From Escherichia coli (GTDB lineage: Bacteria; Pseudomonadota; Gammaproteobacteria; Enterobacterales; Enterobacteriaceae): a DNA stretch of 64,000 bases. Made by a program: the position numbers and the translations under genes. This document shows, piece by piece, positions 3,758 to 63,900 of the stretch (its first letter is position 1; every line of letters begins with the position of its first letter). Location: NCBI RefSeq assembly GCF_044324785.1, contig NZ_CP172127.1; one strand, written 5' to 3'. The notes beneath the pieces were generated by a model. It worked only from the letters and a program-made list of their open reading frames with translations. It was not told the DNA's origin and made no database searches.

Positions 3758-4372
3758 TTATCTGTTTGAGCCTAAAGGGATCTCAGGGTCTGGCTCATGA
3801 GTAATTCTGTTTCGTAAATCTCTGCGAATAATTTCAATGGACCAGAACCAGACTAAATGTCCAAAAATTTCAGAAACATTCTCATACCACGGGAGATCAA
3901 ACAGAGGTGGCGTCAGTCCCATGAGAGGGAATGAAATCATATGAACAAAAAGTTGGGCTAAAGCACCTGCCAGTAAGCCCTGCCAGAGTTTAATTTTTGG
4001 AAATACTTCAGCGACCACACAATAACCGACAGCAAACACTATCGAAAAGATAATGTGCGTAACACCAACCCAGTTAAAGACATGCCCGGCAAAGGTATAA
4101 ACAGCCGCATTGGGATCTGTCAGCCCCAGCCAGTCTCGAAGAAAAATATACGGAGGATTGAGAAAATTACGGGAGCAATCAATTTGCCCAGCAGCCCTGA
4201 TTAATGATTCCGGGCCACACGCTGCATTAAACATATCCACCGGGCTACGTGGCGGCAATGGAACTTCAGCCCCCCACTTCACAAATGCGGAAACAACGCC
4301 AGCAATCAGCCCAATGAATGCAGCAAGACCATAACGTCTGCGGTTCGGTGGAGTTTGTTCAAATATATTCAT
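3758..4372 (-). CDS. yagU: Inner-membrane protein YagU (DUF1440 family)
   Basis: 204-aa ORF with several hydrophobic segments; recognised as YagU by sequence recall and by position between ykgJ and paoA. Confidence 0.8.
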
Positions 4373-6420: not shown

Positions 6421-8615
6421 AATTTGATAAACCCGCAGGGGAAAACCCGATCGATCAGCTGAAGGTTGTCGGTCGTCCCCATGACCGCATCGACGGACCG
6501 CTGAAAACTACCGGCACGGCACGCTACGCCTACGAATGGTTTGAAGAAGCTCCCAACGCCGCCTATGGCTATATCGTCGGTTCCGCCATTGCCAAAGGAC
6601 GCCTCACCGCCCTCGATACGGACGCCGCGCAAAAAGCGCCGGGCGTACTGGCTGTCATTACCGCCAGTAACGCCGGGGCACTCGGCAAAGGCGACAAAAA
6701 CACCGCCAGCCTGTTAGGCGGCCCCACTATTGAGCACTATCATCAGGCCATTGCGCTGGTAGTGGCCGAGACCTTCGAACAGGCGCGAGCGGCGGCCTCG
6801 CTGGTGCAGGCGCACTATCGCCGTAATAAAGGAGCTTACTCCCTGGCGGACGAGAAACAGGCCGTCAGTCAGCCGCCGGAAGACACGCCCGATAAAAATG
6901 TTGGTGACTTTGACGGGGCTTTCACCTCCGCTGCGGTGAAGATTGATGCTACCTACACGACCCCGGACCAGAGCCATATGGCGATGGAGCCGCATGCCTC
7001 GATGGCCGTCTGGGATGGAAATAAGCTTACCCTCTGGACCTCAAACCAGATGATTGACTGGTGCCGCACCGATCTGGCAAAAACGCTGAAAGTGCCTGTG
7101 GAGAATGTGCGTATTATCTCCCCGTATATCGGCGGAGGGTTTGGCGGCAAGCTGTTCCTGAGAAGCGATGCACTGCTGGCGGCCCTCGCCGCCCGAGCGG
7201 TGAAACGTCCGGTTAAAGTGATGCTCCCCCGTCCCACTATTCCCAATAACACCACGCACCGCCCCGCCACCCTTCAGCACTTGCGTATCGGTGCCGACCA
7301 GAGCGGGAAAATCACTGCTATCTCACATGAAAGCTGGTCCGGAAACCTGCCCGGTGGCACGCCGGAAACGGCGGTACAGCAAAGCGAATTTCTTTACGCA
7401 GGGGCGAATCGTCATACCGGCCTGCGGCTCGCCACGCTTGATTTGCCGGAAGGGAACGCCATGCGTGCGCCCGGCGAAGCCCCCGGTCTGATGGCGCTCG
7501 AAATCGCGATCGATGAACTGGCGGAAAAAGCGGGCATCGATCCCGTCGAGTTTCGCATCCTGAATGACACTCAGGTTGACCCCGCCGATCCGACGCGCCG
7601 CTTCTCTCGCCGTCAGCTTATCGAGTGCTTGCGCACCGGAGCGGATAAATTTGGCTGGAAGCAGCGCAACGCCACACCCGGACAGGTACGCGACGGGGAG
7701 TGGCTAGTCGGCCACGGTGTTGCGGCGGGCTTTCGCAATAATCTGCTGGAAAAATCGGGTGCGCGGGTTCACCTGGAGCAAAACGGCACCGTTACCGTGG
7801 AAACGGACATGACCGATATTGGCACTGGCAGCTACACCATTCTGGCCCAGACGGCAGCGGAAATGCTTGGCGTACCGCTGGAGCAGGTTGCGGTTCACCT
7901 CGGCGATTCCAGTTTCCCGGTTTCTGCGGGGTCTGGTGGACAATGGGGCGCGAATACCTCCACCTCCGGCGTTTACGCCGCCTGTGTGAAGCTTCGCGAA
8001 ATGATTGCCTCGGCAGTCGGGTTTGATCCTGAGCAGTCGCAGTTTGCCGACGGCAAGATTACCAACGGTACCCGAAGCGCCATGCTACATGAGGCCACCG
8101 CAGGCGGCAGACTGACAGCGGAAGAGAGCATTGAATTCGGAACACTGAGCAAGGAGTACCAGCAGTCGACCTTTGCCGGGCATTATGTGGAGGTCGGCGT
8201 GCATAGCGCGACGGGAGAAGTTCGGGTCCGGCGTATGCTCGCTGTGTGTGCTGCAGGACGCATCCTGAATCCGAAAACTGCACGCAGCCAGGTCATTGGC
8301 GCAATGACTATGGGCATGGGCGCGGCACTGATGGAGGAGCTGGCGGTAGATGACCGTTTGGGCTACTTCGTTAATCACGATATGGCGGGGTATGAGGTGC
8401 CGGTCCATGCGGATATCCCAAAACAGGAGGTGATTTTCCTGGATGATACCGACCCCATCTCCTCCCCGATGAAGGCCAAAGGTGTCGGTGAGCTGGGCCT
8501 GTGCGGCGTGAGCGCGGCTATCGCCAACGCGGTGTATAACGCCACCGGTATTCGGGTACGGGATTATCCCATCACTCTGGATAAGCTGCTCGATAAGCTG
8601 CCGGATGTGGTTTAA
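6417..8615 (+). CDS. paoC: Aldehyde oxidoreductase molybdenum-cofactor subunit PaoC
   Basis: 732 aa; overlaps the paoB stop by 4 bp; large-subunit xanthine dehydrogenase/aldehyde oxidase family by sequence recall and operon context. Confidence 0.9.
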
Positions 8616-8624
8616 GGAGGAACA

Positions 8625-9581
8625 ATGTCATACCCACTTTTTGACAAAGACGAGCACTGGCATAAGCCAGAGCAGGCGTTTCTCACCGATGACCACCGGG
8701 CCATTCTGCGCTTCGCCGTAGAGGCGCTAATGTCCGGTAAAGGAGCGGTGCTGGTGACGCTGGTGGAAATACGCGGCGGCGCGGCGCGCCCGCTCGGTGC
8801 GCAGATGGTGGTGCGCGAAGATGGTCGTTACTGCGGTTTTGTCTCTGGCGGCTGCGTGGAGGCCGCTGCCGCTTTTGAAGCGCTGGAGATGATGGGCTCA
8901 GGCCGCGATCGCGAAATTCGCTATGGCGAAGGTTCGCCGTGGTTTGACATCGTTCTGCCCTGCGGCGGTGGGATCACGCTGACGCTCCATAAACTACGCT
9001 CGGCACAGCCTCTGCTCGCCGTGCTGAACCGCCTGGAACAGAGAAAACCGTCGGGTCTGCGCTACGATCCGCAAGCTCAATCGCTGGTGTGCCTGCCCAC
9101 GCAAACCCGGACGGGCTGGAATCTCAATGGCTTTGAGGTGGGGTTCAGGCCATGCGTCAGGCTGATGATTTACGGACGTTCTCTTGAGGCGCAGGCAACC
9201 GCGAGTCTTGCAGCAGCCACAGGCTATGACAGCCATATCTTCGATCTTTTTCCGGCCTCAGCCAGCGCTCAGATCGATACCGATACGGCGGTCATTTTGC
9301 TGTGCCATGATCTCAACCGGGAGCTGCCAGTGTTGCAGGCCGCGCGAGAAGCAAAACCCTTTTATCTCGGCGCATTGGGCAGCTATCGAACCCACACTTT
9401 ACGTCTGCAAAAGCTCCACGAGCTGGGATGGTCCAGGGAGGAGACAGCGCAAATCCGGGCACCCGTCGGGATATTCCCCAAAGCCCGGGATGCGCATACT
9501 CTGGCACTCTCCGTGCTGGCAGAAGTCGCCTCTGTACGTCTCCATCAGGAGGAGGATTCATGCCTGCCCCCGTCGTCCTGA
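8625..9581 (+). CDS. paoD: Molybdenum cofactor insertion chaperone PaoD (XdhC-like)
   Basis: 318 aa, 9 bp downstream of paoC; length and context match PaoD. Confidence 0.85.
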   Translation: MSYPLFDKDEHWHKPEQAFLTDDHRAILRFAVEALMSGKGAVLVTLVEIRGGAARPLGAQMVVREDGRYCGFVSGGCVEAAAAFEALEMMGSGRDREIRYGEGSPWFDIVLPCGGGITLTLHKLRSAQPLLAVLNRLEQRKPSGLRYDPQAQSLVCLPTQTRTGWNLNGFEVGFRPCVRLMIYGRSLEAQATASLAAATGYDSHIFDLFPASASAQIDTDTAVILLCHDLNRELPVLQAAREAKPFYLGALGSYRTHTLRLQKLHELGWSREETAQIRAPVGIFPKARDAHTLALSVLAEVASVRLHQEEDSCLPPSS

Positions 9582-14600: not shown

Positions 14601-15390
14601 CTTCGACTCCTTCCGGTTTAAATGCGCGTGGAACAGTAATTTGATAATCCGGCTCCAGCCAGCCGCCGGGTATGATTTGCCGCTTTCCCGTACCTGTTTC
14701 TATACCGCTTTGATCAATATACTGAAAATAAGGGTGTCCATTACGCCGGGCAAGGTAAAGCATCACCCGGTTGGTTTTAACCGAATGACTGGCGCAGAGT
14801 AACGCCTGCAATTTACGCGGGCTGAGAAGATTCATCCCCTGAAACAGAGCATCGGCATGTTCGAACGATATCAACGAAGGAACGCCGCAGGCGATCTCAT
14901 ACGCGGCCAGTTCCGGGGCACTGCCTGCTAACTGCCGGTCGCCAATTTTCAGTTCCGTAGTCAATGACGTTACATCTACGGTAAGCCCCGATGTATACAG
15001 CGTGATAAATGTTGCAGATTGTTCGAAGGCAGCAAACCATCCCGGCAGCTTAACGTAAGCCGGAAGCGCGAGCCAGACCTGCGGCTTACCCGGTTCGGTA
15101 TAGTGCGCATGGCCCTGAAACGCAAGGCTGGTTAGCCCCGCCACCCGAACAGGCTTTTCCCACTGTGTTTGAAGGCAGTAAACCGCGTCTACCCAATCCG
15201 GCTCACGGCCCGTCCGGCAGTACACGCCGTGAGCGATGCGCCTGAGCCAGCCATTTTGAACATAGAGATAAGAAAGCTTACGATCTACGCCGTTGCGGGT
15301 AAGCCATGACTGGAGCAGCACCTGACCGGGTAGCGTATTTTGCATCAACCAGTTTAGATAGTTTGGCAAATGTCGCTCCTGAATAGACAT
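14587..15390 (-). CDS. AbiEi-family antitoxin/transcriptional regulator
   Basis: 267 aa, immediately upstream of and overlapping the AbiEii gene; N-terminal segment resembles the AbiEi winged-helix domain (GWLRRIAHGVYCR). Confidence 0.65.
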   Translation of the reverse strand: MSIQERHLPNYLNWLMQNTLPGQVLLQSWLTRNGVDRKLSYLYVQNGWLRRIAHGVYCRTGREPDWVDAVYCLQTQWEKPVRVAGLTSLAFQGHAHYTEPGKPQVWLALPAYVKLPGWFAAFEQSATFITLYTSGLTVDVTSLTTELKIGDRQLAGSAPELAAYEIACGVPSLISFEHADALFQGMNLLSPRKLQALLCASHSVKTNRVMLYLARRNGHPYFQYIDQSGIETGTGKRQIIPGGWLEPDYQITVPRAFKPEGVEDGSA

Positions 15391-15652
15391 TAGTAGAAAT
15401 ATTTAAACCAGTGTAGGTTCAGGGATACGCCACAGCAAGAAATAGTTTACTTATTCCTCATTTTGTCTACTTAAAATTGACATTGAGAAAAAAATACAAA
15501 CTTACCTACATTCAGGCAAAGTGCGACAAATAGACTCGGTCGGTTTAAAGAGAACGTGTAACATAGATGCAAATCGAATAGACATTGTTGCCAGCCGTTC
15601 CAAGGTTGTGGGGCGCTGCATGGCCTGAGACGTGATAAATACAGGGAACACA

Positions 15653-18600
15653 ATGAAATTCACTGAAGATACCCGAGTAAAAATCCCCGTCATCCTCCAC
15701 CTGATACGGCTGGGCTACCACTACCTGTCCCTTAAAGAACAACGCTGGGACAAAGAAACCAATATCTTCCCTGACCTCTTCACCGCTGCGATTGGCAGAA
15801 TAAATCCCGGACTTGTGCCAGACGACATCGGACGCCTGTTAAAAGACCTCACGCTGCTTCTCGACAACGATGATCTGGGCCGCGCCTTCTTCGAAAAACT
15901 CAGTGACCGTTCCGGTATCAAACTGATCGACTTTGATAACTTCAACAACAACAGTTTCCATGTCGTCACCGAACTGACCTGCGAAAACGGTGATGAAGAA
16001 TTCCGCCCGGACATCACGCTGCTGATCAACGGCATGCCGCTAATCTTTATCGAAGTGAAAAAACCCAACAATCGGGAAGGCATCGTCGCAGAACGCAACC
16101 GCATCAACGAACGCTTTAAAAACCCCAAATTCAAACGCTTCGCCAACATCACCCAGTTCATGATCTTCTCCAATAACATGGAGTATGACGACAGCGACCC
16201 GGAGCCGATTCAAGGGGCATTCTACGCCAGCAGCTCTTACAGCAACCCGGTATTCAACTACTTCCGCGAAGAAGAACTCTTCAACCTGACCAACTTACTG
16301 AAACCGCTGTCAGAAGAAACCGAAATCGCCGTCCTGAAAGACAACAACCTGGAAGTGATCCGCACCAACCCGGAATTTCAGACCAACAAAGATCACAACC
16401 GCCCGACAAACCGCCTCTGCACCGCGCTGTTGAGCCGGGATCGGCTGGCATTTATCCTGCGCTATGCGCTGGTGTATGTAGCCGAACCGGGCGGCATCCA
16501 AAAACACATCATGCGCTACCCGCAGCTCTTCGCCACCAAAGCGATTGAGCGCAAACTGAACGCTGGCGTGAAAAAAGGCATTATCTGGCACACCCAGGGC
16601 AGTGGGAAAACCGCATTGGCATACTACAACGTGCGCTTCCTGACAGATTACTTCCAGAATCAGCAGGTGATCCCGAAATTCTACTTTATTGTCGATCGTC
16701 TTGATCTGCTCCAGCAGGCGCAGCGTGAATTCACCGCCCGTGGCTTAATCGTTCACCTTATCGACTCCCGCGAAGCCTTCACCCGCGATATCAAAGCGAC
16801 GCAGGCGCTGCACAACCACCACGGCAAAGCGGAAATCACCGTCGTCAACATCCAGAAATTCCGCGATGACCCGGATGTCGTCACCACCAAAGACTACGAC
16901 ATCAACATCCAACGCGTGTACTTCCTCGATGAAGTCCACCGCAGCTACAACCCCAAAGGGAGCTTCCTGGCGAATTTAAGCCAGTCGGACACCAACGCCA
17001 TCAAAATTGGCCTGACCGGTACGCCTCTGCTGGGCACAGACTACAACTCCCGCGACCTCTTCGGCGACTACATCCACAAATACTACTACAACGCCTCCAT
17101 TGCCGACGGCTACACGCTGCGCCTGATCCGTGAAGAGATCGCCACCAACTACCGGATGATCCTGCAACAGGCGCTAAAAGACGTAGAAGTCAGAATGGGC
17201 GATGTGGATCGCAAAGACATCTACGCCCATCCCAGTTTCGTCAAACCGATGCTGAACTACATCGTCACCGACTTTGCCAAAAGCCGGGGCGCACTGAATG
17301 ATGACACCATCGGCGGCATGGTGATTTGCGACAGCTCAGAACAGGCCAAGCAGATGTTTGAGATATTCAACACTGACTACGCCGAATCGCCCACCGCTGC
17401 CGATGACGTCGCCGAAGAAATGCCGGTATTACAGGCCGCAGAGCCTGCCGCCGTTTACCAGATCCACGCCAAAGAAACGCGGAAAATCAAACGCGCCGCC
17501 CTGATCCTGCACGACGTCGGCAGCAAGCAGGAGCGCAAAGAATGGGTGGATCAATTCAAAGCGGGCGAGATTGACCTGCTGTTCGTCTACAACATGTTGC
17601 TCACGGGCTTTGACGCCAAACGGCTAAAAAAACTCTACCTCGGGCGGGTGATCAGAAAGCACAACCTGCTCCAGGCGCTGACCCGCGTCAACCGAACCTA
17701 CAACCACTTCCGCTACGGCTATGTGGTGGACTTCGCCGACATCCGCCAGGAATTTGACGCCACCAACAAAGCCTACTTCGAAGAGCTACAGGCTGAACTG
17801 GGCGATGAAATGGAGCATTACTCCCGCCTGTTCAAATCAGCGGATGAGATTCGCGAAGAAATCGAACATATCAAAGACGTTCTGTTTAGCTTCGATACCG
17901 AAAACGCGGAAATCTTCACTGACCAGATAAACCAGATCCATGACCGGGAAACCGCGCTGGTACTGAAAAACGCGCTGGCCGACGCCCGCAGCCTGTACAA
18001 CCTGATTCGCCTCCAGGGCAACACTGAGTTTCTCCAGGCGCTGGATTTCAACAAACTCAACATCCTTTACCGCGAAGCCAGCCGCCGCCTCGACTTACTC
18101 AACCTGAAGGCGGATCTGGAACAGGGTGTTGACCTCTCCGGCCTGCTGAACCGGGCGCTGGAAGAGGTGATCTTTGAATTCCACAAAGTGGGCGAAGAAG
18201 AGCTGGTACTGGCCGACGAGCTGAAAGAGACGCTGCGCCGCACCCGCGAAGCGCTGGCCGCCAACTTCGACCAGCAGGACCCGCAGTTCGTCAGCCTGAA
18301 AGACGAACTGGAGCGTCTGTTTAAGAAAAAGAAACTCAGCGAAGTCACCCAGCAAGAAATGGTTGCGAATATCGGCACACTCAATAAAATTCATGGCCGC
18401 ATCAAAGAGCTAAACCGCCAAAATAACCTGCTGCGCCAGAAATACCGTGGCGACGTGAAATACGCGCGTACCCACAAACGCCTGCGCGAGCGCGGCGGCC
18501 TGAGCGAGCCGGAGCGTAAAATCTTCGAAGCACTGCTTGGCGTTAAGCTGGATGCGGATGAAAAAGTGCTGAATAACAGCCAGATACTGAACAACGAAAG

Positions 18601-18751
18601 CTATTTTGAGCGGCAGATTGTGTCATGTGTACTCGATCACTTTGAACAACAGCAGCACATCACCCTGAGTGCGAAAGCGGCTGGCGACATCAACCGCCTG
18701 ATTGTGGCGGAATACCTGAACGAATTTAATACCGGAGCACGTACGTGGTAG
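15653..18751 (+). CDS. hsdR: Type I restriction enzyme, endonuclease/translocase subunit HsdR
   Basis: N-terminal PD-(D/E)xK nuclease motif (IFIEVKK), helicase motif I (HTQGSGKT) and motif II (FLDEVHRS); ATG at 15653 preceded by AGGGA, with an upstream in-frame GTG at 15632. Confidence 0.85.
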   Translation: MKFTEDTRVKIPVILHLIRLGYHYLSLKEQRWDKETNIFPDLFTAAIGRINPGLVPDDIGRLLKDLTLLLDNDDLGRAFFEKLSDRSGIKLIDFDNFNNNSFHVVTELTCENGDEEFRPDITLLINGMPLIFIEVKKPNNREGIVAERNRINERFKNPKFKRFANITQFMIFSNNMEYDDSDPEPIQGAFYASSSYSNPVFNYFREEELFNLTNLLKPLSEETEIAVLKDNNLEVIRTNPEFQTNKDHNRPTNRLCTALLSRDRLAFILRYALVYVAEPGGIQKHIMRYPQLFATKAIERKLNAGVKKGIIWHTQGSGKTALAYYNVRFLTDYFQNQQVIPKFYFIVDRLDLLQQAQREFTARGLIVHLIDSREAFTRDIKATQALHNHHGKAEITVVNIQKFRDDPDVVTTKDYDINIQRVYFLDEVHRSYNPKGSFLANLSQSDTNAIKIGLTGTPLLGTDYNSRDLFGDYIHKYYYNASIADGYTLRLIREEIATNYRMILQQALKDVEVRMGDVDRKDIYAHPSFVKPMLNYIVTDFAKSRGALNDDTIGGMVICDSSEQAKQMFEIFNTDYAESPTAADDVAEEMPVLQAAEPAAVYQIHAKETRKIKRAALILHDVGSKQERKEWVDQFKAGEIDLLFVYNMLLTGFDAKRLKKLYLGRVIRKHNLLQALTRVNRTYNHFRYGYVVDFADIRQEFDATNKAYFEELQAELGDEMEHYSRLFKSADEIREEIEHIKDVLFSFDTENAEIFTDQINQIHDRETALVLKNALADARSLYNLIRLQGNTEFLQALDFNKLNILYREASRRLDLLNLKADLEQGVDLSGLLNRALEEVIFEFHKVGEEELVLADELKETLRRTREALAANFDQQDPQFVSLKDELERLFKKKKLSEVTQQEMVANIGTLNKIHGRIKELNRQNNLLRQKYRGDVKYARTHKRLRERGGLSEPERKIFEALLGVKLDADEKVLNNSQILNNESYFERQIVSCVLDHFEQQQHITLSAKAAGDINRLIVAEYLNEFNTGARTW

Positions 18752-18909
18752 AACTGTAATTTAGAGATAAAACCAAAACCCTGATCGACAGCCTGAAAAG
18801 CATCTGTGCGAACTACGGCCTGGGCAACGACGGTAACGAATTCAAAATTATCACTCAGGCATTCCTGTACAAATTCCTGAACGACAAATTCGCCTTTGAA
18901 GCCAAAAAG

Positions 18910-20382
18910 GTGGATAAAAGCATCGCCAGCGCCGAAAAATGGGAAGTCGCGCTCAATCAGATGAGCGAAGAACAGCGGGATAAACTGCAACTGAAGATGA
19001 GCGCCGACACTGCGCGTCTGAAGCCGCATCACTTCATTCAGTATTTATACAACCGTCAAAATGAGGCCAATTTCGCCACCACCTTTGACGACACCCTGAT
19101 GGACATCGCCGCCACCAACAACGACGTCTTCGCGGTCAAAACTGACGGCGGCGCGAAAGTGGTGCTGTTTGAGCGCCTCAGCCAGTACATCGCCGACGAA
19201 TCAAGGCGCGACGACTTCTGCCGCGCCATTATCAACAAACTGGCCGATTTCAGCTTCGAGCGCATCTTCACGCAGAAATTCGACTTCTACGCCACTATCT
19301 TTGAATACCTGATCAAAGACTACAACAGCAACTCCGGCGGCAAATACGCGGAATACTATACGCCCCACGCCGTGGCGCGCATCATGGCGGAAATCCTGGT
19401 GCCGAAAGCACAACAGGGCGTAGTGCGCAACGTAAGCTGTTACGACCCGTCCGCCGGTTCCGGCACCTTACTGATGAACGTGGCGCACGCCATCGGGGAA
19501 GATCGTTGCAGCATCTTCGCGCAGGACATCTCGCAGAAATCCTCCAGCCTGCTGCGCCTGAACCTGATCCTCAACAATCTGGTGCATTCGATCCCCAACG
19601 TGATTCAGGGCAACACCATTCTGCACCCGTTCCACAAGGACGGCAGCGCGCTGAAACGCTTTGACTATATCGTCTCTAACCCGCCGTTTAAGATGGATTT
19701 CAGCGATTTCCGCGACGATTTGGATAGCAAGGAAAACCAGCAACGTTTCTTTGCCGGGATACCAAAAATCAAAGCCAAAGCCAGGGACAAAATGGAAATT
19801 TACCAGTTGTTCCTGCAACACATCATTTTCTCGCTGAAACCGGATGGTAAGGCGGCGGTCGTGGTGCCGACCGGGTTTATCACCGCGCAGTCGGGCATTG
19901 ATAAAGGGATTCGCGAACATCTGGTGAAAAACAAGATGCTGGCGGGTGTGGTTTCCATGCCGTCGAATATCTTCGCCACCACCGGCACTAACGTATCGAT
20001 CCTGTTTATTGACGCCAGCAACAAAGAGAAAGTGGTGCTGATCGACGCCTCGAATTTAGGTGAAAAGGTCAAAGACGGCAAAAACCAGAAAACGGTGCTG
20101 ACCGAAGAAGAAGAGCAGCGCATCTGCGAAGTGTTCAACAACAAGTGGAGCGAAGAGGATTTCTCGGTGGTGGTCAGCTATGACGAGATCGCCGGGAAAA
20201 ATTACTCGTTCAGCGCCGGGCAGTATTTCGATGTGAAAATTGAATACACCGATATGACGCCGGAACAGTTTGCCGCGAAGATGAACGGGTTTACGGAGAA
20301 TCTGGAGAGTTTGTTTAGCCAGTCGCGCGAGCTGGAGGTGGAGATTAAAAAGCAGATGGCGGGGCTGAATTTCCATGGTTAA
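18910..20382 (+). CDS. hsdM: Type I restriction-modification methyltransferase subunit HsdM (start uncertain)
   Basis: AdoMet motif DPSAGSGTLL, catalytic NPPF, and the conserved EYYTPHAVARIMAEIL segment. The annotated start is a GTG; about 150 bp of in-frame HsdM-like sequence lies upstream without a canonical start (see findings). Confidence 0.8.
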   Translation: MDKSIASAEKWEVALNQMSEEQRDKLQLKMSADTARLKPHHFIQYLYNRQNEANFATTFDDTLMDIAATNNDVFAVKTDGGAKVVLFERLSQYIADESRRDDFCRAIINKLADFSFERIFTQKFDFYATIFEYLIKDYNSNSGGKYAEYYTPHAVARIMAEILVPKAQQGVVRNVSCYDPSAGSGTLLMNVAHAIGEDRCSIFAQDISQKSSSLLRLNLILNNLVHSIPNVIQGNTILHPFHKDGSALKRFDYIVSNPPFKMDFSDFRDDLDSKENQQRFFAGIPKIKAKARDKMEIYQLFLQHIIFSLKPDGKAAVVVPTGFITAQSGIDKGIREHLVKNKMLAGVVSMPSNIFATTGTNVSILFIDASNKEKVVLIDASNLGEKVKDGKNQKTVLTEEEEQRICEVFNNKWSEEDFSVVVSYDEIAGKNYSFSAGQYFDVKIEYTDMTPEQFAAKMNGFTENLESLFSQSRELEVEIKKQMAGLNFHG

Positions 20383-21493
20383 AACTATTGGTGATGCTTG
20401 TAATATTAGTACAGGTAAACTTGATGCAAACCAGGCTGTAAAAGGTGGTGATTATCCGTTTTTTACGTGCGCAGAGTTCCCTGAACAAATCGATCATTAT
20501 GCATTTGACGGCGATGTGGTTCTTATTGCTGGCAATAATGCAAGAGGAAACTTTCACGTAAGCAGGTATCAAGGGAAATTTAATGCTTACCAGCGAACCT
20601 ATGTGCTTACAGCCAAACATGGTTATGATATTGATTATATTTACTATGCCTTAAGACTTGAATTAAAGCGATTGCGAGAAAAATCTCAAGGCTCGCAAAC
20701 AAAGTTTCTGACAATGCCGATTTTGACCAGTATATCGCTAGGAAACCTAGTCGAGACTGAACAATCGACAGTTTCAAGAGTATTAAAAATACTGGATAAA
20801 AAAATCGCTCTCAACAATCGTATCAACGCCGAGCTGGAAGCGATGGCGAAAACACTGTATGACTACTGGTTTGTACAGTTTGATTTCCCTGATGCCAACG
20901 GAAAACCGTATAAAACCTCCGGCGGGAAGATGGTGTACAACGCCACGCTGAAACGGGAAATTCCGGCGGGGTGGAATATTAAAAATCTTGGCGATATAGC
21001 GGAACTATATCAGCCTAAGACCATTTCAGGTAACGATTTTATTGATGATGGTGAATATCTTGTATATGGAGCCAACGGTATTGTAGGAAGATTCAATAAA
21101 TATAACCATGAAGAACCTGTCGTTACAATCACCTGCCGTGGAAATACGTGCGGCAATATAAACGTCACACGACCATATTCATGGATTACAGGGAATGCAA
21201 TGGTGGTTAAGCCAAAGTTTAACTATATTTCACCTTATTATATTTATAATTTATTGTCGATATCGGAAGTTGATAAAGTCATTACTGGCTCTGCTCAACC
21301 TCAAATTACGCGAGCAAACCTAGCTCCACTTAAGGTTGTTGAACCAGCAGAGGACATTACGCAAAAATACTCAAAGTCTGTTGATGCTTTTTTTAAAAAG
21401 CATATCTCAATATTAGATGAAAATGATAATTTATTAAAACTCCGCGACTGGCTCCTCCCCCTGCTTATGAACGGACAGGTCACGGTCAAATAA
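20375..21493 (+). CDS. hsdS: Type I restriction-modification specificity subunit HsdS (two target-recognition domains)
   Basis: 372 aa; overlaps the hsdM stop by 8 bp; two variable AT-rich domains separated by a central conserved spacer (LDKKIALNNRINAELEAMAKTLYDYWFVQFDFPD) and a C-terminal conserved helix (LLKLRDWLLPLLMNGQVTV). Confidence 0.8.
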   Translation: MVKTIGDACNISTGKLDANQAVKGGDYPFFTCAEFPEQIDHYAFDGDVVLIAGNNARGNFHVSRYQGKFNAYQRTYVLTAKHGYDIDYIYYALRLELKRLREKSQGSQTKFLTMPILTSISLGNLVETEQSTVSRVLKILDKKIALNNRINAELEAMAKTLYDYWFVQFDFPDANGKPYKTSGGKMVYNATLKREIPAGWNIKNLGDIAELYQPKTISGNDFIDDGEYLVYGANGIVGRFNKYNHEEPVVTITCRGNTCGNINVTRPYSWITGNAMVVKPKFNYISPYYIYNLLSISEVDKVITGSAQPQITRANLAPLKVVEPAEDITQKYSKSVDAFFKKHISILDENDNLLKLRDWLLPLLMNGQVTVK

Positions 21494-21653
21494 TCCCCGC
21501 CGTGTTTTGCGAGGCGCATTCCAGATCCACATTGCGCCGCGCTCACCGCTGTAAAACCGCTTGCCGTTCATAACCGATCGAAGTATCTTTCTCCCGCGCC
21601 TGCAAAATCAGGCGTCGGGATTAGCCTCCTGAAAACCGTTACAGGCGACACTT

Positions 21654-23735: not shown

Positions 23736-26105
23736 TTAAATAAACATAAGAATAAACATCAGAAGTTCTTCGTATCTGATACCATACTGATAGCCAGCAG
23801 GTTTAATAATAACCTGCCTTCCTGTGTAATATTCCTCGTCGTACCACTCTCCTGTTTCATTGTTTTTAACACTCCTAATCAATACCTCTGGAGCATAAAT
23901 ATCATCCCATTCATCATAACACCAGAACGCATAGTTATTAGGGTCAAGACCGTATTTTCTGAGAATATTACCTACAGTTTGTGCACCAACGCCGAAATGA
24001 ATCCGAGCGCCATCACTCTTGATCTTTACTGCATCTTTAAATTTAAACCTCCAGATATTTTCCTTTATTTCAAGCGCAGCAAGACGCTCTGATTCTGTTG
24101 TTTTCTCGTCAGCCTCAATACGCAATTTCAGCTCTTCATTCGACGTGTTGATACTGCCAGTACCAGCGTATACCTGTGACCATCGAAATGCTGATGTTCC
24201 GTTTGAGTTAACATTATCAACAGTTGGTTTTATAAGGCCAGAAAAATGAGTTTCAGGTGTATTAATATATGTATATGCACCTGCTGTACTACGAGTCCTT
24301 AACTCAAAGCTGTCTATATCAACACCAGTCCTACGAATTATAAGGAAGTTATTTCCTGCGGAACCAGTATCGGTTTGAGTGCTAACAGACAATCCGTTTC
24401 GTGTATCAATACGTATATTCTTCCCGTTCTCCAGCGAAGCAGAATTATGTAGATACAGCGAGTTGTCAGTGTAGAGATTGTGTTTACCTACATTGCTAAA
24501 TGTATAAGTATTGCTTGTGTTATCACTGTTCCTATGGAATTGCTGAAGAGTGTAGGCAGAAGATGCTCCGTATCCATCACAATGGAAATTTCTGCACAGC
24601 TGCAAATCGAATAACAATACGGTGTCAGCATTAATGCTCACATTATTAAAGCATGTTGCAAAGTTGGCACCATACTGTGAATTGGAATCGCCAATCTGTG
24701 CGCACACATCAAGCAAACCAAAAGTTACATTGGTAAAGTTATTTGCATCACCGGCGTCAAGAACAATCCCTTTCTTAGTCCCTGAATACCCTCTGGCAGT
24801 GCCGATCTCAACTCCCTGGAATGAACACACGCGAGCACGACTAAGCTTAAGACCAACCCATTCCAGACCATGATCGTAACCTTTTGCTGCGCGGTGAATA
24901 AACATACCATTCATGATGAGAAGGAATCTGTTATCAAGCCGTACTGGTTCAAGTTGGGCATTAATACCAACATTTGTGCATATACATTCACCATAAGCAT
25001 AACGATTCGTTTCAAATATACGATCATCAGCGTCGTAAATGCCTCGTAATGCCTTGGCGGCATCAATATTAAGCAATGTAAAATATGTCTTCTGCTTAAT
25101 TTCAAAAAAATTTGCAACATTATGCGTTGTGATATCACTCACACGCATTGATAAAATCCCCTCTTCTGGAGCGGTGCGAATGAATCCATCAAGGAACTGT
25201 TCATTATAACTTTTGGCTATCTGATAACATCCAACAGCATCAATGCGTTCGATTGTGAACTGCCAACTATCACCACAGTTAAAAGACCATCTCCAGCCGT
25301 ATTTCTGAGCGAATTCATCATATTCAACATTTGCAGGTTCAGAACAGAAAGATAAAAATCTAAATGTTGGTTTTGGCCTTAGATGGTTAATCCCGGAACC
25401 TCTTGGGGTATATATGGCATTATCTCCATTCCCACCTTTTGTTTTAACTGTAAGGTGACTTAAACCAAATTCAATATCATATTTAGTTGGTGCGGCGAAA
25501 ACAAAGCCGTCTTTTGGTGATGTGGTATTGTCAAACACAATAACCGTTTCACCCTGCCCATCACCGCACATATTTACTGGTGGTATATTAACGGGGCCAG
25601 TCAAACTATATGTTCCAGTTGGCACATATAGTTTTCCACCCTCTCCAATAGCATTTGCCGCTGCAATAAATGCCGCCGTATCATCGTTAACACCGTCACC
25701 TTTCGCCCCATAATGCTGTGGCGTAATTAACAGCATACGGTCAGAAAAAATCTCTGTCCTAAGTTGATCAGGATCGTATTTTAATACATTTGGAAAATAA
25801 AACTGCTGAGTGCCATATGCATCATATACAGCCATAGAATGGCCTTGCACGGTAACGAATTTGGCAATCTGTCCGTTATATACCGGATAACCAGCAGCGT
25901 TAATAATGATTGGTTGAGAAACAGGAACGTGAGAACCGTCTTCGTTCTCTACATAAACCGGAATCTGGTTTTCAGGATTTACCGGGTCAGTGTCAATTTT
26001 ACCGATATAAATTTTTCCATTAGCATTTGCTTTAAACGAGCGAGCTAAAGTGAATAACTGACTTGGTTGTGAAACAACAACATTGGCATTTATTGAATCT
26101 GTCAT
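23736..26105 (-). CDS. Phage tailspike protein (P22 gp9-like head-binding domain with a divergent receptor-binding body)
   Basis: N-terminal ~115 aa ([18 protein letters not shown]...[12 protein letters not shown]...[13 protein letters not shown]...VLKYDPDQ) match the P22 tailspike head-binding domain; the remainder is unrelated and AT-rich at the 3' end. Confidence 0.85.
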
Positions 26106-26204: not shown

Positions 26205-27083
26205 TCAGTAGTTATGTACTGAAGGAGGTAATTCTTTATTCTTAAGTCTCATCCATGCGGAAATATTCGTTGGTCCGTCTGGCTCATTAATATCAACATC
26301 TCGTGTGTGATTGATTAAAACGTCTCTCGCCATTCCGATAACATACGAGAATTCATGACCGTAGTCGTAGCATCTGCCGGAATAGTTCGATTGAATTTGT
26401 TTCAGCGCCGGATACAGTTCGCGGAATAATGCCTGTGAGCGGTTGGCATAATCCCATAACCATACAAGGCTGTTTGCTTCTTTTGCAGAAAGCTCGTTGG
26501 TTTTCTTCTCTTGTTTGCCAATGAACTCACCTTCAAGCACTACCCTGTGGATGTACTCTACGGCCAGCGGGATTTGTTCAATTGAAAGTTCATCAATGCT
26601 GTCAATACCAAAACGCTGATGAACCATATTGTATGCATCGTCATAGCGAAGTCCTTTCTTTCCTACCAGCATGTTTACTGCATCGCGTAGCGGTGTTCTT
26701 TCCTCAACAGTGGTTTTCTTTCCTTTTACATACTCGCCATGTTTGCGAATTGAAGGCAGAACTTCTGCTGTTACCCACTTGCGGAATTTGTGCGGGACTG
26801 AACCTTTATTGACTGCATCGCGGCAGCGCAGAACCAATGTATACATACCTGATTCGCTCACAATGCTTAGATTCTGCTCACCACCAAGGGTGTAACTTAA
26901 AGTTACTCCCTTTTCATCGTCATCAAGTGCAGTAAGCGCCTTGCGTGAGTTAGTCAAATCTAAAGCATCACAAACATCTTTAGCTACAAACCACGGCTCA
27001 CCGCACTTGTTGATGACGCGGATTTCACTGTCGCCGAATTTGAAGATGGTGAAATCGTTTTGTGCCTTTGCTATACTTTTCAT
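26205..27083 (-). CDS. ant: Antirepressor Ant (Bro-N/KilAC type) of the immI region
   Basis: 292 aa; N-terminus [25 protein letters not shown] is typical of P22-like Ant; sits downstream of arc. Confidence 0.8.
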
Positions 27084-27151: not shown

Positions 27152-27313
27152 TTACGCACCAATGCGCCCTTCCTTCTTAAAGCTTTCCATTACTCGCTGA
27201 TAAATCTCAGAATTAACAGACCGACCATTTTCTTCCGCCACCTTGCGTACCAAATCCAATACTTCTTTAGGCCACCGCAAATTGAACTGTGGCATTTTGC
27301 TCATTCCTTTCAT
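27152..27313 (-). CDS. arc: Arc repressor (53 aa)
   Basis: From the internal ATG at 27313: MKGMSKMPQFNLRWPKEVLDLVRKVAEENGRSVNSEIYQRVMESFKKEGRIGA, essentially the P22 Arc sequence as I recall it. Confidence 0.9.
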   Translation of the reverse strand: MKGMSKMPQFNLRWPKEVLDLVRKVAEENGRSVNSEIYQRVMESFKKEGRIGA

Positions 27314-27403
27314 GTTCACCTCACAATATAGGTCCACGGTGGACCTATTGAGAATATAGTAGAGTGCTTCTATCATGTCAATACACTAACTTGGAGTGAT
27401 GGC
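27314..27403. promoter_or_regulatory. Divergent Pant/Pmnt control region with Arc and Mnt operators
   Basis: Perfect palindrome TAGGTCCACGGTGGACCTA (Mnt operator) and ATAGTAGAGTGCTTCTATCAT (Arc operator) between the divergent arc and mnt starts. Confidence 0.85.
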
Positions 27404-27658
27404 ATGGCTAGAGATGATCCGCACTTTAACTTCCGTATGCCTTTGGAAGTAAGAGAAAAATTGAAATTAAGAGCCGAGGCTAACGGAAGGTCAATGAACT
27501 CTGAGTTATTACAAATCGTTCAGGATGCACTATCAAAACCATCACCGATTACAGGATATCGCGACGAAGCTGAACGCTTGGCTGATCAGCAGGCTGAGCA
27601 GTTCAAGGCTATAGTGTTTGAGACACTTAAAAAGATTTATGAAAAGGATTTGAAATGA
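27404..27658 (+). CDS. mnt: Mnt repressor (maintenance of lysogeny)
   Basis: 84 aa, MARDDPHFNFRMPLEVREKLKLRAEANGRSMNSELLQIVQDALSKPSP...; ribbon-helix-helix N-terminus like P22 Mnt. Confidence 0.9.
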   Translation: MARDDPHFNFRMPLEVREKLKLRAEANGRSMNSELLQIVQDALSKPSPITGYRDEAERLADQQAEQFKAIVFETLKKIYEKDLK

Positions 27659-27709
27659 GATTTCTATCACTGTTCTTGTTAGCAGTTGTCTCTTCTTCCA
27701 GTGCTGAGC

Positions 27710-28766
27710 GGCTTTGTTGAATAAATCGAACTTTTGCTGAGTTGAAGGATCAGATCACGTATCTTCCCGACAACGCAGACCGTTCCGTGGCAAAGCAAAA
27801 GTTCAAAATCACCAACTGGCCCACCTACAATAAAGCCCTCATCAACCGTGGCTCCATAACTTTCTGGCTGGATGATGAAGCTATTCAGGCCTGGTATGAG
27901 TCAGCAACACCTTCTTCACGAGGCAGACCTCAGCGCTATTCTGACCTTGCCATCACTACTGTGCTGGTCATTAAACGCGTATTCAGGCTGACCCTGCGGG
28001 CTGCGCAGGGCTTTATTGATTCCATTTTTTCTCTGATGAACGTTCCGCTACGCTGCCCGGATTACAGCTGTGTCAGCAGGCGGGCAAAGTCGGTTAATGT
28101 CAGTTTCAAAACGCCCACCCGGGGTGAAATCGCACACCTGGTAATTGATTCCACCGGGCTGAAGGTCTTCGGTGAAGGCGAGTGGAAAGTCAAAAAGCAT
28201 GGCCAGGAACGCCGCCGTATCTGGCGTAAGCTGCATCTCGCCGTTGACAGTAAAACACATGAAATCATCTGCGCTGACCTGTCGCTGAACAACGTTACGG
28301 ACTCAGAGGCCTTCCCCGGGTTAATCCGGCAAACCCACCGGAAAATCAGGTCAGCCGCCGCCGATGGCGCTTACGATACCCGGCTATGTCACGATGAACT
28401 GCGGCGTAAGAAAATCAGCGCGCTTATCCCTCCCCGAAAAGGTGCGGGTTACTGGCCCGGTGAATATGCAGACCGTAACCGTGCAGTGGCTAATCAGCGA
28501 ATGACCGGGAGTAATGCGCGGTGGAAATGGACAACAGATTACAACCGTCGCTCGATAGCGGAAACGGCGATGTACCGGGTAAAACAGCTGTTCGGGGGTT
28601 CACTGACGCTGCGTGACTACGATGGTCAGGTTGCGGAGGCTATGGCCCTGGTACGAGCGCTGAACAAAATGACGAAAGCAGGTATGCCTGAAAGCGTGCG
28701 TATTGCCTGAAAACACAACCCGCTACGGGGGAGACTTACCCGAAATCTGATTTATTCAACAAAGCC
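27710..28766 (+). mobile_element. IS903-like insertion sequence (IS5 family), 1057 bp, flanked by a 9-bp target-site duplication
   Basis: Terminal inverted repeats GGCTTTGTTGAATAAATC (27710-27727) and GATTTATTCAACAAAGCC (28749-28766); direct 9-bp duplication GTGCTGAGC at 27701-27709 and 28767-28775; 1057 bp matches IS903. Confidence 0.9.
27787..28710 (+). CDS. IS903-type DDE transposase (307 aa from GTG 27787)
   Basis: The VAKQKFKITNWPTYNKALINRGSITFWLDDEAIQAWYE N-terminus matches IS903 transposase as I recall it; the ORF is also open from an upstream ATG at 27742. Confidence 0.85.
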   Translation: MAKQKFKITNWPTYNKALINRGSITFWLDDEAIQAWYESATPSSRGRPQRYSDLAITTVLVIKRVFRLTLRAAQGFIDSIFSLMNVPLRCPDYSCVSRRAKSVNVSFKTPTRGEIAHLVIDSTGLKVFGEGEWKVKKHGQERRRIWRKLHLAVDSKTHEIICADLSLNNVTDSEAFPGLIRQTHRKIRSAAADGAYDTRLCHDELRRKKISALIPPRKGAGYWPGEYADRNRAVANQRMTGSNARWKWTTDYNRRSIAETAMYRVKQLFGGSLTLRDYDGQVAEAMALVRALNKMTKAGMPESVRIA

Positions 28767-29071
28767 GTGCTGAGCTGCGCGAGCTTCAAACGGGTAATGA
28801 CCTTCTTTACAACATTCAACAAGGTAAAAAGGGTGATGATTTTTCATCGCTTTACATTACTGGATATTTGCGCGGAGTAACTGACTCATTGATACTAATT
28901 GGTTCTCTATGTCCTCCTGATGGCGTTGACATGTATCAATACACCGATATCGTTGAGAAATCTCTAAACAAAAACCCAGAATCAAGAAATGAGAGTGCAG
29001 TTATACTAACCGCCCTAGCAGTAGGAAAAACATTTCCGTGCAAAAAGAATCAATAACAATAAGGGCTTAAA

Positions 29072-29461
29072 ATGAAATTGATTATAGCAATGGCTTTCCT
29101 TGTCTTCTCGTTTTCTGTCTCAGCAGAGTGCTGGGTCGTTGGAGATATGCACGGAATAAGCTATTCAGAACGAAATAATTTTCAACCGGAAGAAGATGGT
29201 TTTAGTGGAACATTCATCATTAAGACAAACGGTGAAGATGCCAGTATCACATATTCTGGGACGGATGCGGGCGGCATGGCTTACAAAGCATTGTCTAAAA
29301 ACTCCATCCTAGGAATTGGCGCGAATGGAGAAACTCAACGCGTTATAGACTCATGGGTAATACATCCTACTGGAACAGTTTTAATGTCAAAAACCATTTC
29401 CGGTTATGGAAATATGGATTCAACCAAAGCTTTTGTTGGAAAAGTAAAAAGAAAATGTTAA
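29072..29461 (+). CDS. Hypothetical secreted/periplasmic protein (129 aa)
   Basis: Signal peptide MKLIIAMAFLVFSFSVSAEC; second gene of the mnt-downstream operon; no recognisable domain. Confidence 0.6.
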   Translation: MKLIIAMAFLVFSFSVSAECWVVGDMHGISYSERNNFQPEEDGFSGTFIIKTNGEDASITYSGTDAGGMAYKALSKNSILGIGANGETQRVIDSWVIHPTGTVLMSKTISGYGNMDSTKAFVGKVKRKC

Positions 29462-29482: not shown

Positions 29483-29677
29483 TCAACAGCTTCCGCGTCC
29501 CTGAGTAATTCTGTTGCGGATTTGCTTCTTGCGGTGGTTTAAGCTGGAGAGCTTGGCTTCTGCTTCTGATATTTGCGCATCAAGATCTTTAAGCTCAAGA
29601 TCTGAAAGTCGCTGGTCAAGCAGGGTTTGGTTCAACTCAATATTGTTCAGACGTTCTTCTATGGTCATAACTTTCAT
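29483..29677 (-). CDS. Small coiled-coil protein (about 64 aa from ATG 29677)
   Basis: Heptad-rich MKVMTIEERLNNIELNQTLLDQRLSDLELKDLDAQISEAEAKLSSLNHRKKQIRNRI; start codon choice is uncertain. Confidence 0.4.
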   Translation of the reverse strand: MKVMTIEERLNNIELNQTLLDQRLSDLELKDLDAQISEAEAKLSSLNHRKKQIRNRITQGRGSC

Positions 29678-29699
29678 CCTATAACTATTTGGAATCAAA

Positions 29700-29882
29700 A
29701 TGAAAAATATATTAATTGGTTTCGTTTTTGGTGCAGCCTGCGCTGCCAGCATTAGCGTTATCGCCGCCCAGATTGTTGGTGGTAACTCATATCTAATGGG
29801 CTATGACGTCATGATAGATGGAGAGGTTGTTTGCTCAGACCCTTATGTATGGACGTCGACAAAAGAAATAGAATGTGACTAA
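29700..29882 (+). CDS. Small signal-peptide/membrane protein (60 aa)
   Basis: [28 protein letters not shown] hydrophobic N-terminus; AT-rich cargo region. Confidence 0.35.
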
Positions 29883-29977
29883 TACCAGCCTGATGGCTGG
29901 TTAATTTTTGCATTTACCTGGGCCATATTGACTACTTATAAAATGAGATCAATATTTAATCGCCCAATAACGGGTGT

Positions 29978-30172
29978 ATGTTGAGGTATATCATGGCGAA
30001 AAAACCAGGTGAAAATACAGGGAAAAACGGCGGAATATACCAGGAAGTTGGTCCACGCGGTGGTAAGAAGGACAATTTTGCCACCGTCAGGGACAACGAA
30101 AGACTTCCGCCAACAACAAAGCCAGGTCATGGCTGGGTATTGGATAAGCGAACTCCAGACAGCAAAAAGTAA
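29978..30172 (+). CDS. Small basic Gly/Lys-rich protein (64 aa; start may be ATG 29993)
   Basis: ORF only; MAKKPGENTGKNGGIYQEVGPRGGKKDN. Confidence 0.3.
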   Translation: MLRYIMAKKPGENTGKNGGIYQEVGPRGGKKDNFATVRDNERLPPTTKPGHGWVLDKRTPDSKK

Positions 30173-30185: not shown

Positions 30186-30551
30186 TCACTCCGGCTTTTT
30201 GATATGTCGCTCGCAGAACTCAACAAGCCTGCTCATTAAGTAGCAGTAAGTCTCGTTGGCTCTTCCTGGTTCAACATCAACACCTACCCTTGAGCAGATA
30301 TCGAATGCCATGTGAGCGCACTCATGGGCAATAGTAGATAGTTTGCCATTGAACACGCCTATCACATGCAAAACACCATTCTCGCTACTCATTGTATGAG
30401 ACGCTCCGTTGGCGTCCGAGTCATGCACGTCAACGCCAAGTTTTTGATGCAGGCGTTGCCATTCTGGAAAGTCTCTACAAAACACAATGGTACCGCTCTC
30501 AAAGAGCGGTACGAGCATCTTTGGTACGTTTCCAATGTTAACTTTTTTCAT
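30186..30551 (-). CDS. Small HExxH-motif protein (putative Zn-metallopeptidase-like), 121 aa
   Basis: Contains IAHECAHMAF (HExxH) plus downstream E/C residues; no further similarity recognised. Confidence 0.45.
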   Translation of the reverse strand: MKKVNIGNVPKMLVPLFESGTIVFCRDFPEWQRLHQKLGVDVHDSDANGASHTMSSENGVLHVIGVFNGKLSTIAHECAHMAFDICSRVGVDVEPGRANETYCYLMSRLVEFCERHIKKPE

Positions 30552-47392: not shown

Positions 47393-47468
47393 TGGTGCTG
47401 GTTAACGGACTTGAACCGCTAGCCATTCGCTTACAAGGCGACCGCTCTACCATTGGAGCTAAACCAGC
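47393..47468 (-). tRNA. Prophage-encoded tRNA (76 nt; anticodon read as UGU, Thr)
   Basis: Hand fold of GCTGGTT...AACCAGCACCA: 7-bp acceptor stem, D-arm GCTC/GAGC, T-arm AGCGG-TTCAAGT-CCGTT, CCA encoded; the anticodon stem has one mismatch. Confidence 0.55.
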
Positions 47469-47473
47469 ATGTT

Positions 47474-47548
47474 TGGCGGGACAGCGTGGACTCGAACCAC
47501 GATAAGAAGGTTAACAGCCTTCCGTAATGACCTTTATACGACTGACCC
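47474..47548 (-). tRNA. Prophage-encoded tRNA-like gene (75 nt; anticodon read as GUU, Asn), possibly degenerate
   Basis: T-arm CGTGG-TTCGAGT-CCACG and anticodon arm GAAGG-CTGTTAA-CCTTC are clean; the acceptor and D stems each have one mismatch; CCA encoded. Confidence 0.45.
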
Positions 47549-62431: not shown

Positions 62432-62491
62432 CTTATTGATTTAAATGGTGCCGATAATAGGAGTCGAACCTACGACCTTCGCATTACGAAT
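62428..62491. repeat. Prophage attachment-site repeat (attR): 64 bp overlapping the thrW 3' end
   Basis: Identical to 22652-22715. Confidence 0.85.
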
Positions 62492-63889: not shown

Positions 63890-63900
63890 CGGCCAGCTCC

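Follow-up and report, generated by a model that had tools for sequence, protein, structure and literature searches.

Proteins of the Rap1a/Tai4 family confer immunity to type VI secretion amidases; they share a leader for the periplasm, an entirely helical fold, and a conserved disulfide, and they form a dimer that enters the active site of the amidase (PMC3695027). The leader was described for Tai4, and the disulfide tethers the N- and C-terminal helices; the characterized members act as dimers and block the active site of Tae4/Ssp1-type amidases injected by a type VI secretion system (T6SS) (PMC3695027). Hex of phage 434 ("heterologous exclusion") belongs to a separate family: P22 is excluded from Salmonella lysogenic for lambda imm434, but not when hex is mutated (PMC3564112, citing Susskind and Botstein 1980). 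We compared with these systems two adjacent genes, here called gene 1 and gene 2, that follow the repressor gene mnt in a P22-like prophage of Escherichia coli (RefSeq assembly GCF_044324785.1, contig NZ_CP172127.1). The stretch of this contig that was analyzed, 64,000 nucleotides in length, is referred to below as the window; in it, both genes lie on the plus strand between positions 27655 and 29461. We consider it fairly probable that the locus carries two independent lysogen-expressed genes for putatively exported proteins, one an orphan gene for immunity to a Tae4/Ssp1-type amidase, which is dead in this copy, and the other a gene for a periplasmic Hex-type exclusion factor.

Gene 1 and the Rap1a/Tai4 immunity proteins

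A first-pass annotation of the window, made from the letters alone, had called neither protein recognizable, which proved incorrect for both. Gene 1, once rejoined across the insertion sequence (IS) that splits it, matched the Pfam family Rap1a (PF18602) with an E value of 1.4e-13 over model positions 1–90 of 90, and the intact allele already carries the name "Rap1a/Tai family immunity protein" in RefSeq. When a profile built from 51 relatives of gene 1 was compared with solved structures, it matched Tai4 (6ije) at an E value of 2e-7 and Rap1a (3zfi/4bi8) at approximately 2e-5 (1.8e-5 for 3zfi). Residues C64 and C107 were nearly invariant in the 51 relatives, and both aligned with the cysteines of Tai4 and Rap1a. 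The AlphaFold2 (AF2) model of the rejoined protein was all-helical with four helices, at a mean predicted local distance difference test score (pLDDT) of 90.3. In a Foldseek search with this model, the top seven matches were all Rap1a or Tai4, with target-normalized template modeling (TM) scores of 0.72–0.75, and the next match had an E value of 0.15; the matched structures were those of Rap1a alone, the Ssp1-Rap1a complex, Agrobacterium tumefaciens Tai4 alone, and the Tae4-Tai4 complex. The N-terminal sequence MRFLSLFLLAVVSSSSA↓E, in which the arrow marks the predicted cleavage site, read by inspection as a typical Sec signal peptide. Gene 1 matches the traits of the family in its leader (by inspection), its helical fold (in the model), and its aligned cysteine pair, and is, as judged from sequence and predicted structure, a member of the Rap1a/Tai4 family.

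No gene for a Tae4/Ssp amidase effector was found beside gene 1 by annotation or by listed Pfam domain, either in the window or at the related loci, in a search that did not include a scan with a Tae4 profile; the neighbors of gene 1 in the window and at related loci were mnt and the Hex-like gene. With no such effector gene found nearby, gene 1 counts as an orphan immunity gene. Where the ratio of nonsynonymous to synonymous substitution rates (dN/dS) could be computed, it was 0.07–0.37, a range that covers comparisons of both genes. In most comparisons of gene 1, dS was saturated while dN was 0.16–0.26, which indicates that gene 1 has been under purifying selection. The idea that gene 1 or gene 2 is a spurious open reading frame (ORF) was rejected on the basis of conservation, dN/dS, and the confident structure models.

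Gene 1 is coupled to mnt (27404–27658, plus strand; 84 aa, an Arc/Mnt-family repressor), which was found as an ORF with 86.7% DNA identity to P22 mnt/arc. As the first-pass annotation had noted, the TGA stop codon of mnt and the start codon of gene 1 at 27655 overlap (ATGA), and the sequence AAGGA lies 9–13 nt upstream of the latter. An Mnt operator palindrome and a Pmnt-like promoter were located at 27331–27376 (plus strand) from the match of the region to P22 and from a promoter scan; the promoter itself (TTGAGA-17-TATCAT, 27348–27376) is divergent from Pant on the minus strand. When positions 27300–27410, which contain the divergent promoters and operators, were compared with the annotated Pmnt/Omnt/Oarc region of P22, 108 of 111 bases were equal. 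Expression from a promoter active in the lysogen, as had been proposed, is therefore well founded by homology.

In the window, gene 1 is split by an IS903B element (IS5 family, 1057 bp) at 27710–28766 on the plus strand, with a transposase ORF at 27742–28710; the earlier reading of an IS903 insertion was accurate. The element follows codon 18 of gene 1 and has perfect 18-bp terminal inverted repeats (GGCTTTGTTGAATAAATC), a motif that occurs twice in the whole window against 0.01 occurrences expected by chance. It is flanked by two copies of the 9-bp target-site duplication GTGCTGAGC, the left at 27701–27709 and the right at 28767–28775. Its identity with copies annotated as "IS5-like element IS903B family transposase" was 99.3–99.7%, and its transposase matched PHROG 2262 with an E value of 4e-153. 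The length of about 1057 bp, the 18-bp terminal inverted repeats, the one transposase ORF, and the 9-bp target duplication are those of the IS903B class. The 5' fragment of gene 1 (27655–27709, plus strand), which encodes the signal peptide plus one residue, matches the beginning of the intact 111-aa allele exactly. The 3' fragment (28776–29056, plus strand) encodes the whole mature Rap1a/Tai4-like domain, as located by PF18602 on the rejoined protein and by the fold match, and has no in-frame start codon at its own 5' end; the hidden Markov model of the gene 1 family matched window positions 28751–29053.

Excision of the IS and one 9-bp copy left an ORF open to 29056. The clean reconstruction described in the first-pass annotation was thus confirmed in its reading frame and corrected in its length, since the ORF encodes 111 aa (336 bp including the stop codon) and 114 aa are obtained only when both 9-bp copies are kept. 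The reading frame of gene 1 that enters IS903B stops after 21 aa; gene 1 in the window is inactivated by the element and would yield no functional protein, in agreement with the earlier statement. With a perfect duplication and one nucleotide in 336 separating the rejoined gene from the intact allele of E. coli strain C, the insertion looks recent, as had also been proposed. IS903B was found at this site in none of 5426 complete E. coli genomes (the set used for all counts of complete genomes below), and the exact left IS junction had no match in 100,044 species-representative genomes; the insertion therefore appears private to the strain. The sole difference from strain C is nonsynonymous and gives Ser81 (codon 28961–28963) in place of Tyr. 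The seven closest relatives all have Tyr81, which is part of a K-Y-L motif, and Tyr is also the residue that most members show here in the 51-sequence family alignment; Ser81 may be a first sign of decay after inactivation or may be due to chance. By consensus match only, two features that bear on the polar silencing of gene 2, which had been thought probable, were seen: a terminator-like hairpin within IS903B at 27992–28010 and a promoter-like sequence (TTGACA-16-TATCGT) at 28926–28953, in the 3' remnant of gene 1 upstream of gene 2. The window copy is thus an IS-inactivated example, and its main use would be as a natural knock-out of gene 1.

Gene 2 and the Hex family

Gene 2 (29072–29461, plus strand) begins 15 bp past the stop codon of gene 1 and encodes 129 aa with the N-terminal sequence MKLIIAMAFLVFSFSVSA↓EC. 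From the ORF, homology, and the AF2 model, the product is predicted to be a secreted beta-barrel protein of the family of Hex and Sf6 gp38 (PHROG 2651). In a BLASTP comparison with Hex of phage 434, gene 2 showed 29% identity over the full length (E value of 4e-14), and both proteins matched PHROG 2651 at about 1e-59. When phage genomes were searched with gene 2 by tblastn, full-length matches were obtained with gene 38 of Sf6 and with the gene directly after cI in 434, lambda imm434, HK633, HK446, and Sf101. In the 434 record, this gene overlaps the stop codon of cI and is annotated as "repressor protection protein"; it is hex. In sequence, gene 2 is homologous over the full length to phage 434 Hex and Sf6 gp38. 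It comes last in a repressor operon, after mnt and gene 1 on the plus strand, and hex follows cI with an overlapping start.

An exhaustive search for the family gave 94 representatives, nearly all of 120–140 aa. In an alignment of 75 sequences (73 small representatives, gene 2, and Hex), every member had a hydrophobic N-terminal leader. C20, which lies in an ECW motif where the mature protein begins, was invariant, and the C-terminal C129 was nearly so. The leader of gene 2, like that of gene 1, was seen by inspection, in agreement with the first-pass annotation, which had described both products as signal-peptide proteins. The AF2 model of gene 2 had a pLDDT of 94.7 and formed a closed, roughly nine-stranded beta-barrel; fold searches with the model gave only generic small barrels, from which no function could be transferred. 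Pfam had no match for gene 2 or for any of the 75 aligned members, and sequence and profile searches of the PDB with gene 2 gave matches at chance level only. The possibility that gene 2 encodes a lipoprotein was rejected, because the cysteine is at position +2 after the VSA↓E cleavage motif and there is no lipobox.

In the E. coli records listed, RefSeq names gene 2 "hypothetical protein". The gene 2 homologues of two E. coli loci, L002 and L003 (the latter in strain C), both at 5782–6096, are started by RefSeq at an internal Met that gives 104 aa; the coordinates listed with this start-site problem also include 3973–4341 of locus L022. The 104-aa start loses the signal peptide and the invariant first cysteine, and the start that looks right is the 129-aa one, which is that of phage Emek and occurs throughout the family.

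Whether proteins of this family act in the cytoplasm or beyond it bears directly on gene 2. Like published 434 Hex, gene 2 might encode a cytoplasmic "repressor protection protein" that stabilizes lysogeny by blocking RecA-stimulated autocleavage of the repressor. In the study of Hex, deletion of hex raised spontaneous induction 30-fold in recA+ cells and not in recA- cells, and in vitro, a purified 6-kDa Hex fragment kept both the 434 and the P22 repressor from RecA-stimulated cleavage (PMC3564112); the prophage in the window is itself P22-like. That study, which mentions neither a signal peptide nor the periplasm, found that the N-terminus of the stable Hex fragment (sHex) is Glu43 of a 158-aa ORF (PMC3564112). 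We found that in this ORF (phage 434, locus L004, 2429–2905), a signal-peptidase cut at the site predicted for the 134-aa form of Hex (TTSANS↓ECW) would leave exactly Glu43, the Glu19 of that form, as the first residue. Since Glu43 is the first residue after a predicted cleavage site, export of Hex is suggested. The leader in all aligned members, the invariant first cysteine at the predicted mature N-terminus, and the nearly invariant C-terminal one form a periplasmic signature; this leader and cysteine pair argue for export, which would be hard to reconcile with an activity on repressor cleavage. The active fragment was, in addition, a refolded piece corresponding to roughly half of a barrel that is modeled as one closed domain, and members of the family also occur far from any repressor gene. 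On these grounds, we regard a repressor-protecting role of gene 2 as improbable. Export to the periplasm is the more likely biology for the Hex family, and a block of superinfection at the level of the envelope would be the more likely mechanism.

Occurrence and surroundings of the mnt-linked genes

The first-pass annotation had proposed a search for the uninterrupted allele in other prophages, and an intact 111-aa gene was found directly after mnt in many of them. The intact two-gene block was present in 24 of the complete E. coli genomes, at about 98% identity, and also in 16 contigs of IMG/VR, and in all 16 of these contigs the order was mnt, Rap1a-like gene, and Hex-like gene. Gene 1 was 336 bp long in each annotated intact allele, with a start codon overlapping the stop codon of an Mnt-like gene; the mnt counterparts beside these alleles are annotated as "Arc family DNA-binding protein". 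The order of mnt and a Rap1a-like gene, usually with overlapping stop and start codons, was conserved among the P22-like prophages found in Escherichia, Serratia, and Tatumella. E. coli has two types of gene 1, 98% and 65% identical to the window allele, and in the second type of prophage, a Hex-like gene with 47% identity to gene 2 comes after the 65%-identical gene. Relatives of gene 1 with 50–78% identity lie right after an Mnt-family gene; the carriers were Serratia fonticola, Serratia sp. JSRIV002, Tatumella terrea, and this second E. coli prophage type. Remnants with a fragment of mnt were seen in Buttiauxella and Silvania, and a peptide-pattern scan of the species-representative genomes found one locus only, in Silvania.

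The pairing of the two genes, which the first-pass annotation had stressed, is not obligate. The mature part of gene 2 was found in 147 complete E. coli genomes, in 24 of which gene 1 was also present and in 123 of which it was absent. Phage Emek and E. coli FORC_031 carry gene 2 by itself between mnt and gene 16, and relatives of gene 1 occur without gene 2 in Serratia and Tatumella. This distribution bears on the possibility that the two genes form a joint superinfection-exclusion system, in which the Rap1a-like protein inhibits the peptidoglycan hydrolase of an incoming virion and the Hex-like barrel blocks the ejection-protein channel. The pair has been kept in two cassettes diverged to 65% and 47% identity, even in the prophage remnant of Silvania; in P22, this slot from mnt to gene 16 is where sieA lies; Hex is a genetically defined exclusion gene; Rap1a-family genes occur in phages of non-temperate appearance; and some of the P22-like ejection proteins encoded beside the cassettes carry SLT lytic-transglycosylase domains. 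Each gene is nevertheless common without the other, and no NlpC/P60-type virion hydrolase was seen among the neighboring virion genes. Furthermore, all characterized Rap1a/Tai4 proteins inhibit papain-like Tae4 amidases and not lysozyme or SLT folds (PMC3695027), and a joint system seems to us unlikely.

In the S. fonticola prophage, two tandem Rap1a-family genes follow mnt, the second of which (8356–8715, locus L010) is the more divergent. The two are 31% identical to each other, and the second occupies the slot held by the Hex-like gene in E. coli. A second Rap1a-family gene at this position, together with the location of gene 2 directly after a toxin-immunity gene, would fit a phage-borne "immunity islet" in which gene 2 encodes another orphan immunity protein, directed against a periplasm-acting toxin such as a T6SS effector, a colicin, or a lysozyme-type enzyme. 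We give this idea little credence, as the one characterized member of the Hex family has a phage-exclusion phenotype, and the relatives of gene 2 examined on long contigs lie in prophages or phage-like contigs with none beside a toxin gene; two others are on short contigs without informative neighbors. On informative contigs, members of the Hex family occupy typical slots for phage accessory genes, namely after cI (434, Sf6, and a metagenomic phage), after mnt (the window locus), and between the lysis and terminase genes (another prophage).

More distant members of the Rap1a family (28–40% identical) were found among the early genes of phages without a temperate appearance. One lies at 7001–7339 (loci L018/L019) in an 82-kb contig with genes for thymidylate synthase and S-AdoMet lyase; another lies at 2932–3258 (locus L020) in the 61-kb phage DSL-LC04, which has a gene for DNA polymerase I, and this copy is labeled "type VI amidase" though its note says Tai4. 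In some E. coli strains, an intact mnt/Rap1a/Hex block lies in a degraded P22-like remnant beside tRNA-Arg/intS/yfdC or torI/dsdC (locus L002, 1–2100; strain C locus L003, 8873–10192). We take these neighbors to mark the CPS-53/KpLE1 site of K-12; in that case, the cassette has survived beyond the phage by which it arrived.

The P22-like (Lederbergvirus-type) prophage covers approximately 21.7–62.5 kb of the window, and is integrated beside tRNA-Thr(cgt) (62446–62521) and proA, with the integrase gene at 61271–62431. Gene 1 and gene 2 sit in the immI region, at the accessory end of the mnt operon. The order of this region is tailspike (23736–26105), ant (26205–27083; antirepressor, 292 aa), and arc (27152–27313; 53 aa, the first gene of the divergent arc-ant operon), all on the minus strand, then mnt, gene 1, and gene 2 on the plus strand, a few small ORFs, and the ejection-protein genes, which begin at 30788–32698 on the minus strand. 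The tailspike and ejection-protein genes were taken from the ORF list, and ant and arc from the list together with the annotation of the intact-allele loci. Between gene 2 and the ejection-protein genes, at 29483–30172, there were three more small conserved phage ORFs of unassigned role, encoding an XhlA-family protein of 89 aa (minus strand, PHROG 7586), a 60-aa protein with a hydrophobic N-terminus (29700–29882, PHROG 37095), and a 64-aa glycine/lysine-rich protein (29978–30172, PHROG 3202). A 121-aa ORF at 30186–30551 on the minus strand contains an HExxH-like motif (HECAH), matches PHROG 1365 (unknown function), and gave no hit in Pfam; the ORF may represent a small accessory gene, metalloprotease-like, of the same variable interval. 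Adjacent genes for tRNA-Thr(tgt) and tRNA-Asn(gtt) lie inside the prophage at 47393–47548 (minus strand). Outside the tailspike end, at 15000–21500, there is a type I restriction-modification system (hsdR/M/S) with an AbiEi-family antitoxin gene, and this region is about 97% identical to islands of some E. coli genomes. The best identity of the host tRNA-Thr/proA/proB stretch (62440–64000) among the complete E. coli genomes was 97.5%, and the host may belong to a divergent Escherichia lineage.

Proposed roles and comparison with described systems

Our preferred reading, that of two independent lysogen-expressed genes, would work as follows. In an intact prophage, Pmnt would drive mnt, then the translationally coupled gene 1, and then gene 2. 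The product of gene 1 would be exported to the periplasm, where it would form a disulfide and, by analogy, a dimer, and would neutralize a Tae4/Ssp1-type peptidoglycan amidase arriving there. The likeliest source of such an amidase would be the T6SS of a competitor, in which case gene 1 would shield the cell wall of the lysogen. Gene 2 would act independently of gene 1, as a Hex-type factor in the periplasm or envelope that blocks a superinfecting heterologous phage. An exclusion or immunity function had been suggested in the first-pass annotation from the position of the genes; the families found here, one of toxin immunity and the other of Hex, fit this suggestion, but the immunity of gene 1 would be to interbacterial amidases and not to phage.

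Several points weigh against this reading. The signal peptides of both proteins were judged by eye only, and both export and the kind of target are inferred; no effector, toxin, or phage countered by either protein was identified. NCBIfam and PADLOC had no match or model for gene 1 or gene 2. The pairs Rap1a-Ssp1 and Rap2a-Ssp2 are mutually exclusive and of narrow specificity (PMC3695027), and therefore membership in the family does not tell which amidase, if any, gene 1 neutralizes. The Rap1a-family genes in the 61-kb and 82-kb phages of non-temperate appearance fit a phage-centered role at least as well as the protection of a lysogen. The one biochemical study of Hex gives the protein a role in the cytoplasm, that of blocking RecA-stimulated repressor cleavage (PMC3564112), and this conflicts with a periplasmic mechanism.

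A wider proposal, which we put forward tentatively and with some doubt, is that P22-like phages of Escherichia, Serratia, and Tatumella use Pmnt to express a dedicated Rap1a/Tai4 clade that makes the lysogen resistant to type VI amidases, the phage serving as a vector of interbacterial defense, and jointly that the Hex family is an exported periplasmic barrel that blocks phage entry, its cytoplasmic interference with RecA being secondary or an artefact. If the phage-borne clade does neutralize T6SS amidases, P22-like lysogeny would alter contact-dependent warfare among gut enterobacteria, and the mnt operon would be a conserved "defense slot". Through the link between gene 2 and Hex, a gene carried by 147 of the 5426 complete E. 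coli genomes acquires a name and a phenotype that can be tested, and the conserved export signal allows a direct test of the published mechanism of Hex. Both protein families have already been described, and the intact allele of gene 1 had its RefSeq name. In the literature searched, which was screened for prophage-borne Rap1a/Tai4 proteins and for T6SS immunity in temperate phages, we found no description of an orphan Rap1a-clade gene coupled to mnt in P22-like prophages of several genera, or of the "hypothetical" partner as a Hex homologue whose family carries a predicted export signal. These two points lend the locus moderate interest; the find is a modest one, and the copy in the window has recently been inactivated.

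The position of the two genes had been likened to that of the superinfection-exclusion genes of P22. SieA is an inner-membrane protein and not a soluble periplasmic one. The genes compared with it here share the interval between mnt and gene 16 with P22 sieA and orf59a, beside an ejection-protein gene, and the genes of this interval are expressed in the lysogen. However, sieA lies past the mnt terminator with a promoter of its own, unlike gene 1 and gene 2 of the mnt operon, and therefore the positional analogy is loose. PHROGs, Pfam, NCBIfam, and PADLOC assigned neither gene to SieA, SieB, or orf59a, with which no direct sequence comparison was made, and PHROGs and Pfam placed the two genes in other families.

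Compared with Rap1a of Serratia marcescens (immunity to Ssp1) and Tai4 of A. tumefaciens (immunity to Tae4), gene 1 has the same size of about 110 aa, an N-terminal signal peptide, the same four-helix fold, and aligned cysteines, with matches by Pfam and profile, whereas its identity with them is only 22–26%. It also differs from them in that no effector or T6SS cluster is adjacent, in its translational coupling to the mnt of a P22-like prophage, in its membership in a tight clade, borne by phages, that shares a conserved RELQTGNDLL motif, and, in the window copy, in its disruption by IS903B. Gene 1 resembles orphan immunity genes and the acquired interbacterial defense (AID) clusters, in so far as these are outlined in bioRxiv 10.1101/471110, as an effector-less immunity gene on a mobile element that has spread over genera. 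Unlike AID clusters, it is a single gene and not an array, its vector is a temperate phage, and its promoter is a phage repressor promoter. Gene 2 shares with 434 Hex, Sf6 gp38, and the homologues of HK633, HK446, and Sf101 the same PHROG, a leader followed by an ECW start, and a C-terminal cysteine. Like hex, gene 2 lies at the end of a lysogen-expressed repressor operon; it differs in that it follows mnt of immI, whereas hex follows cI of immC, and the two sequences have diverged.

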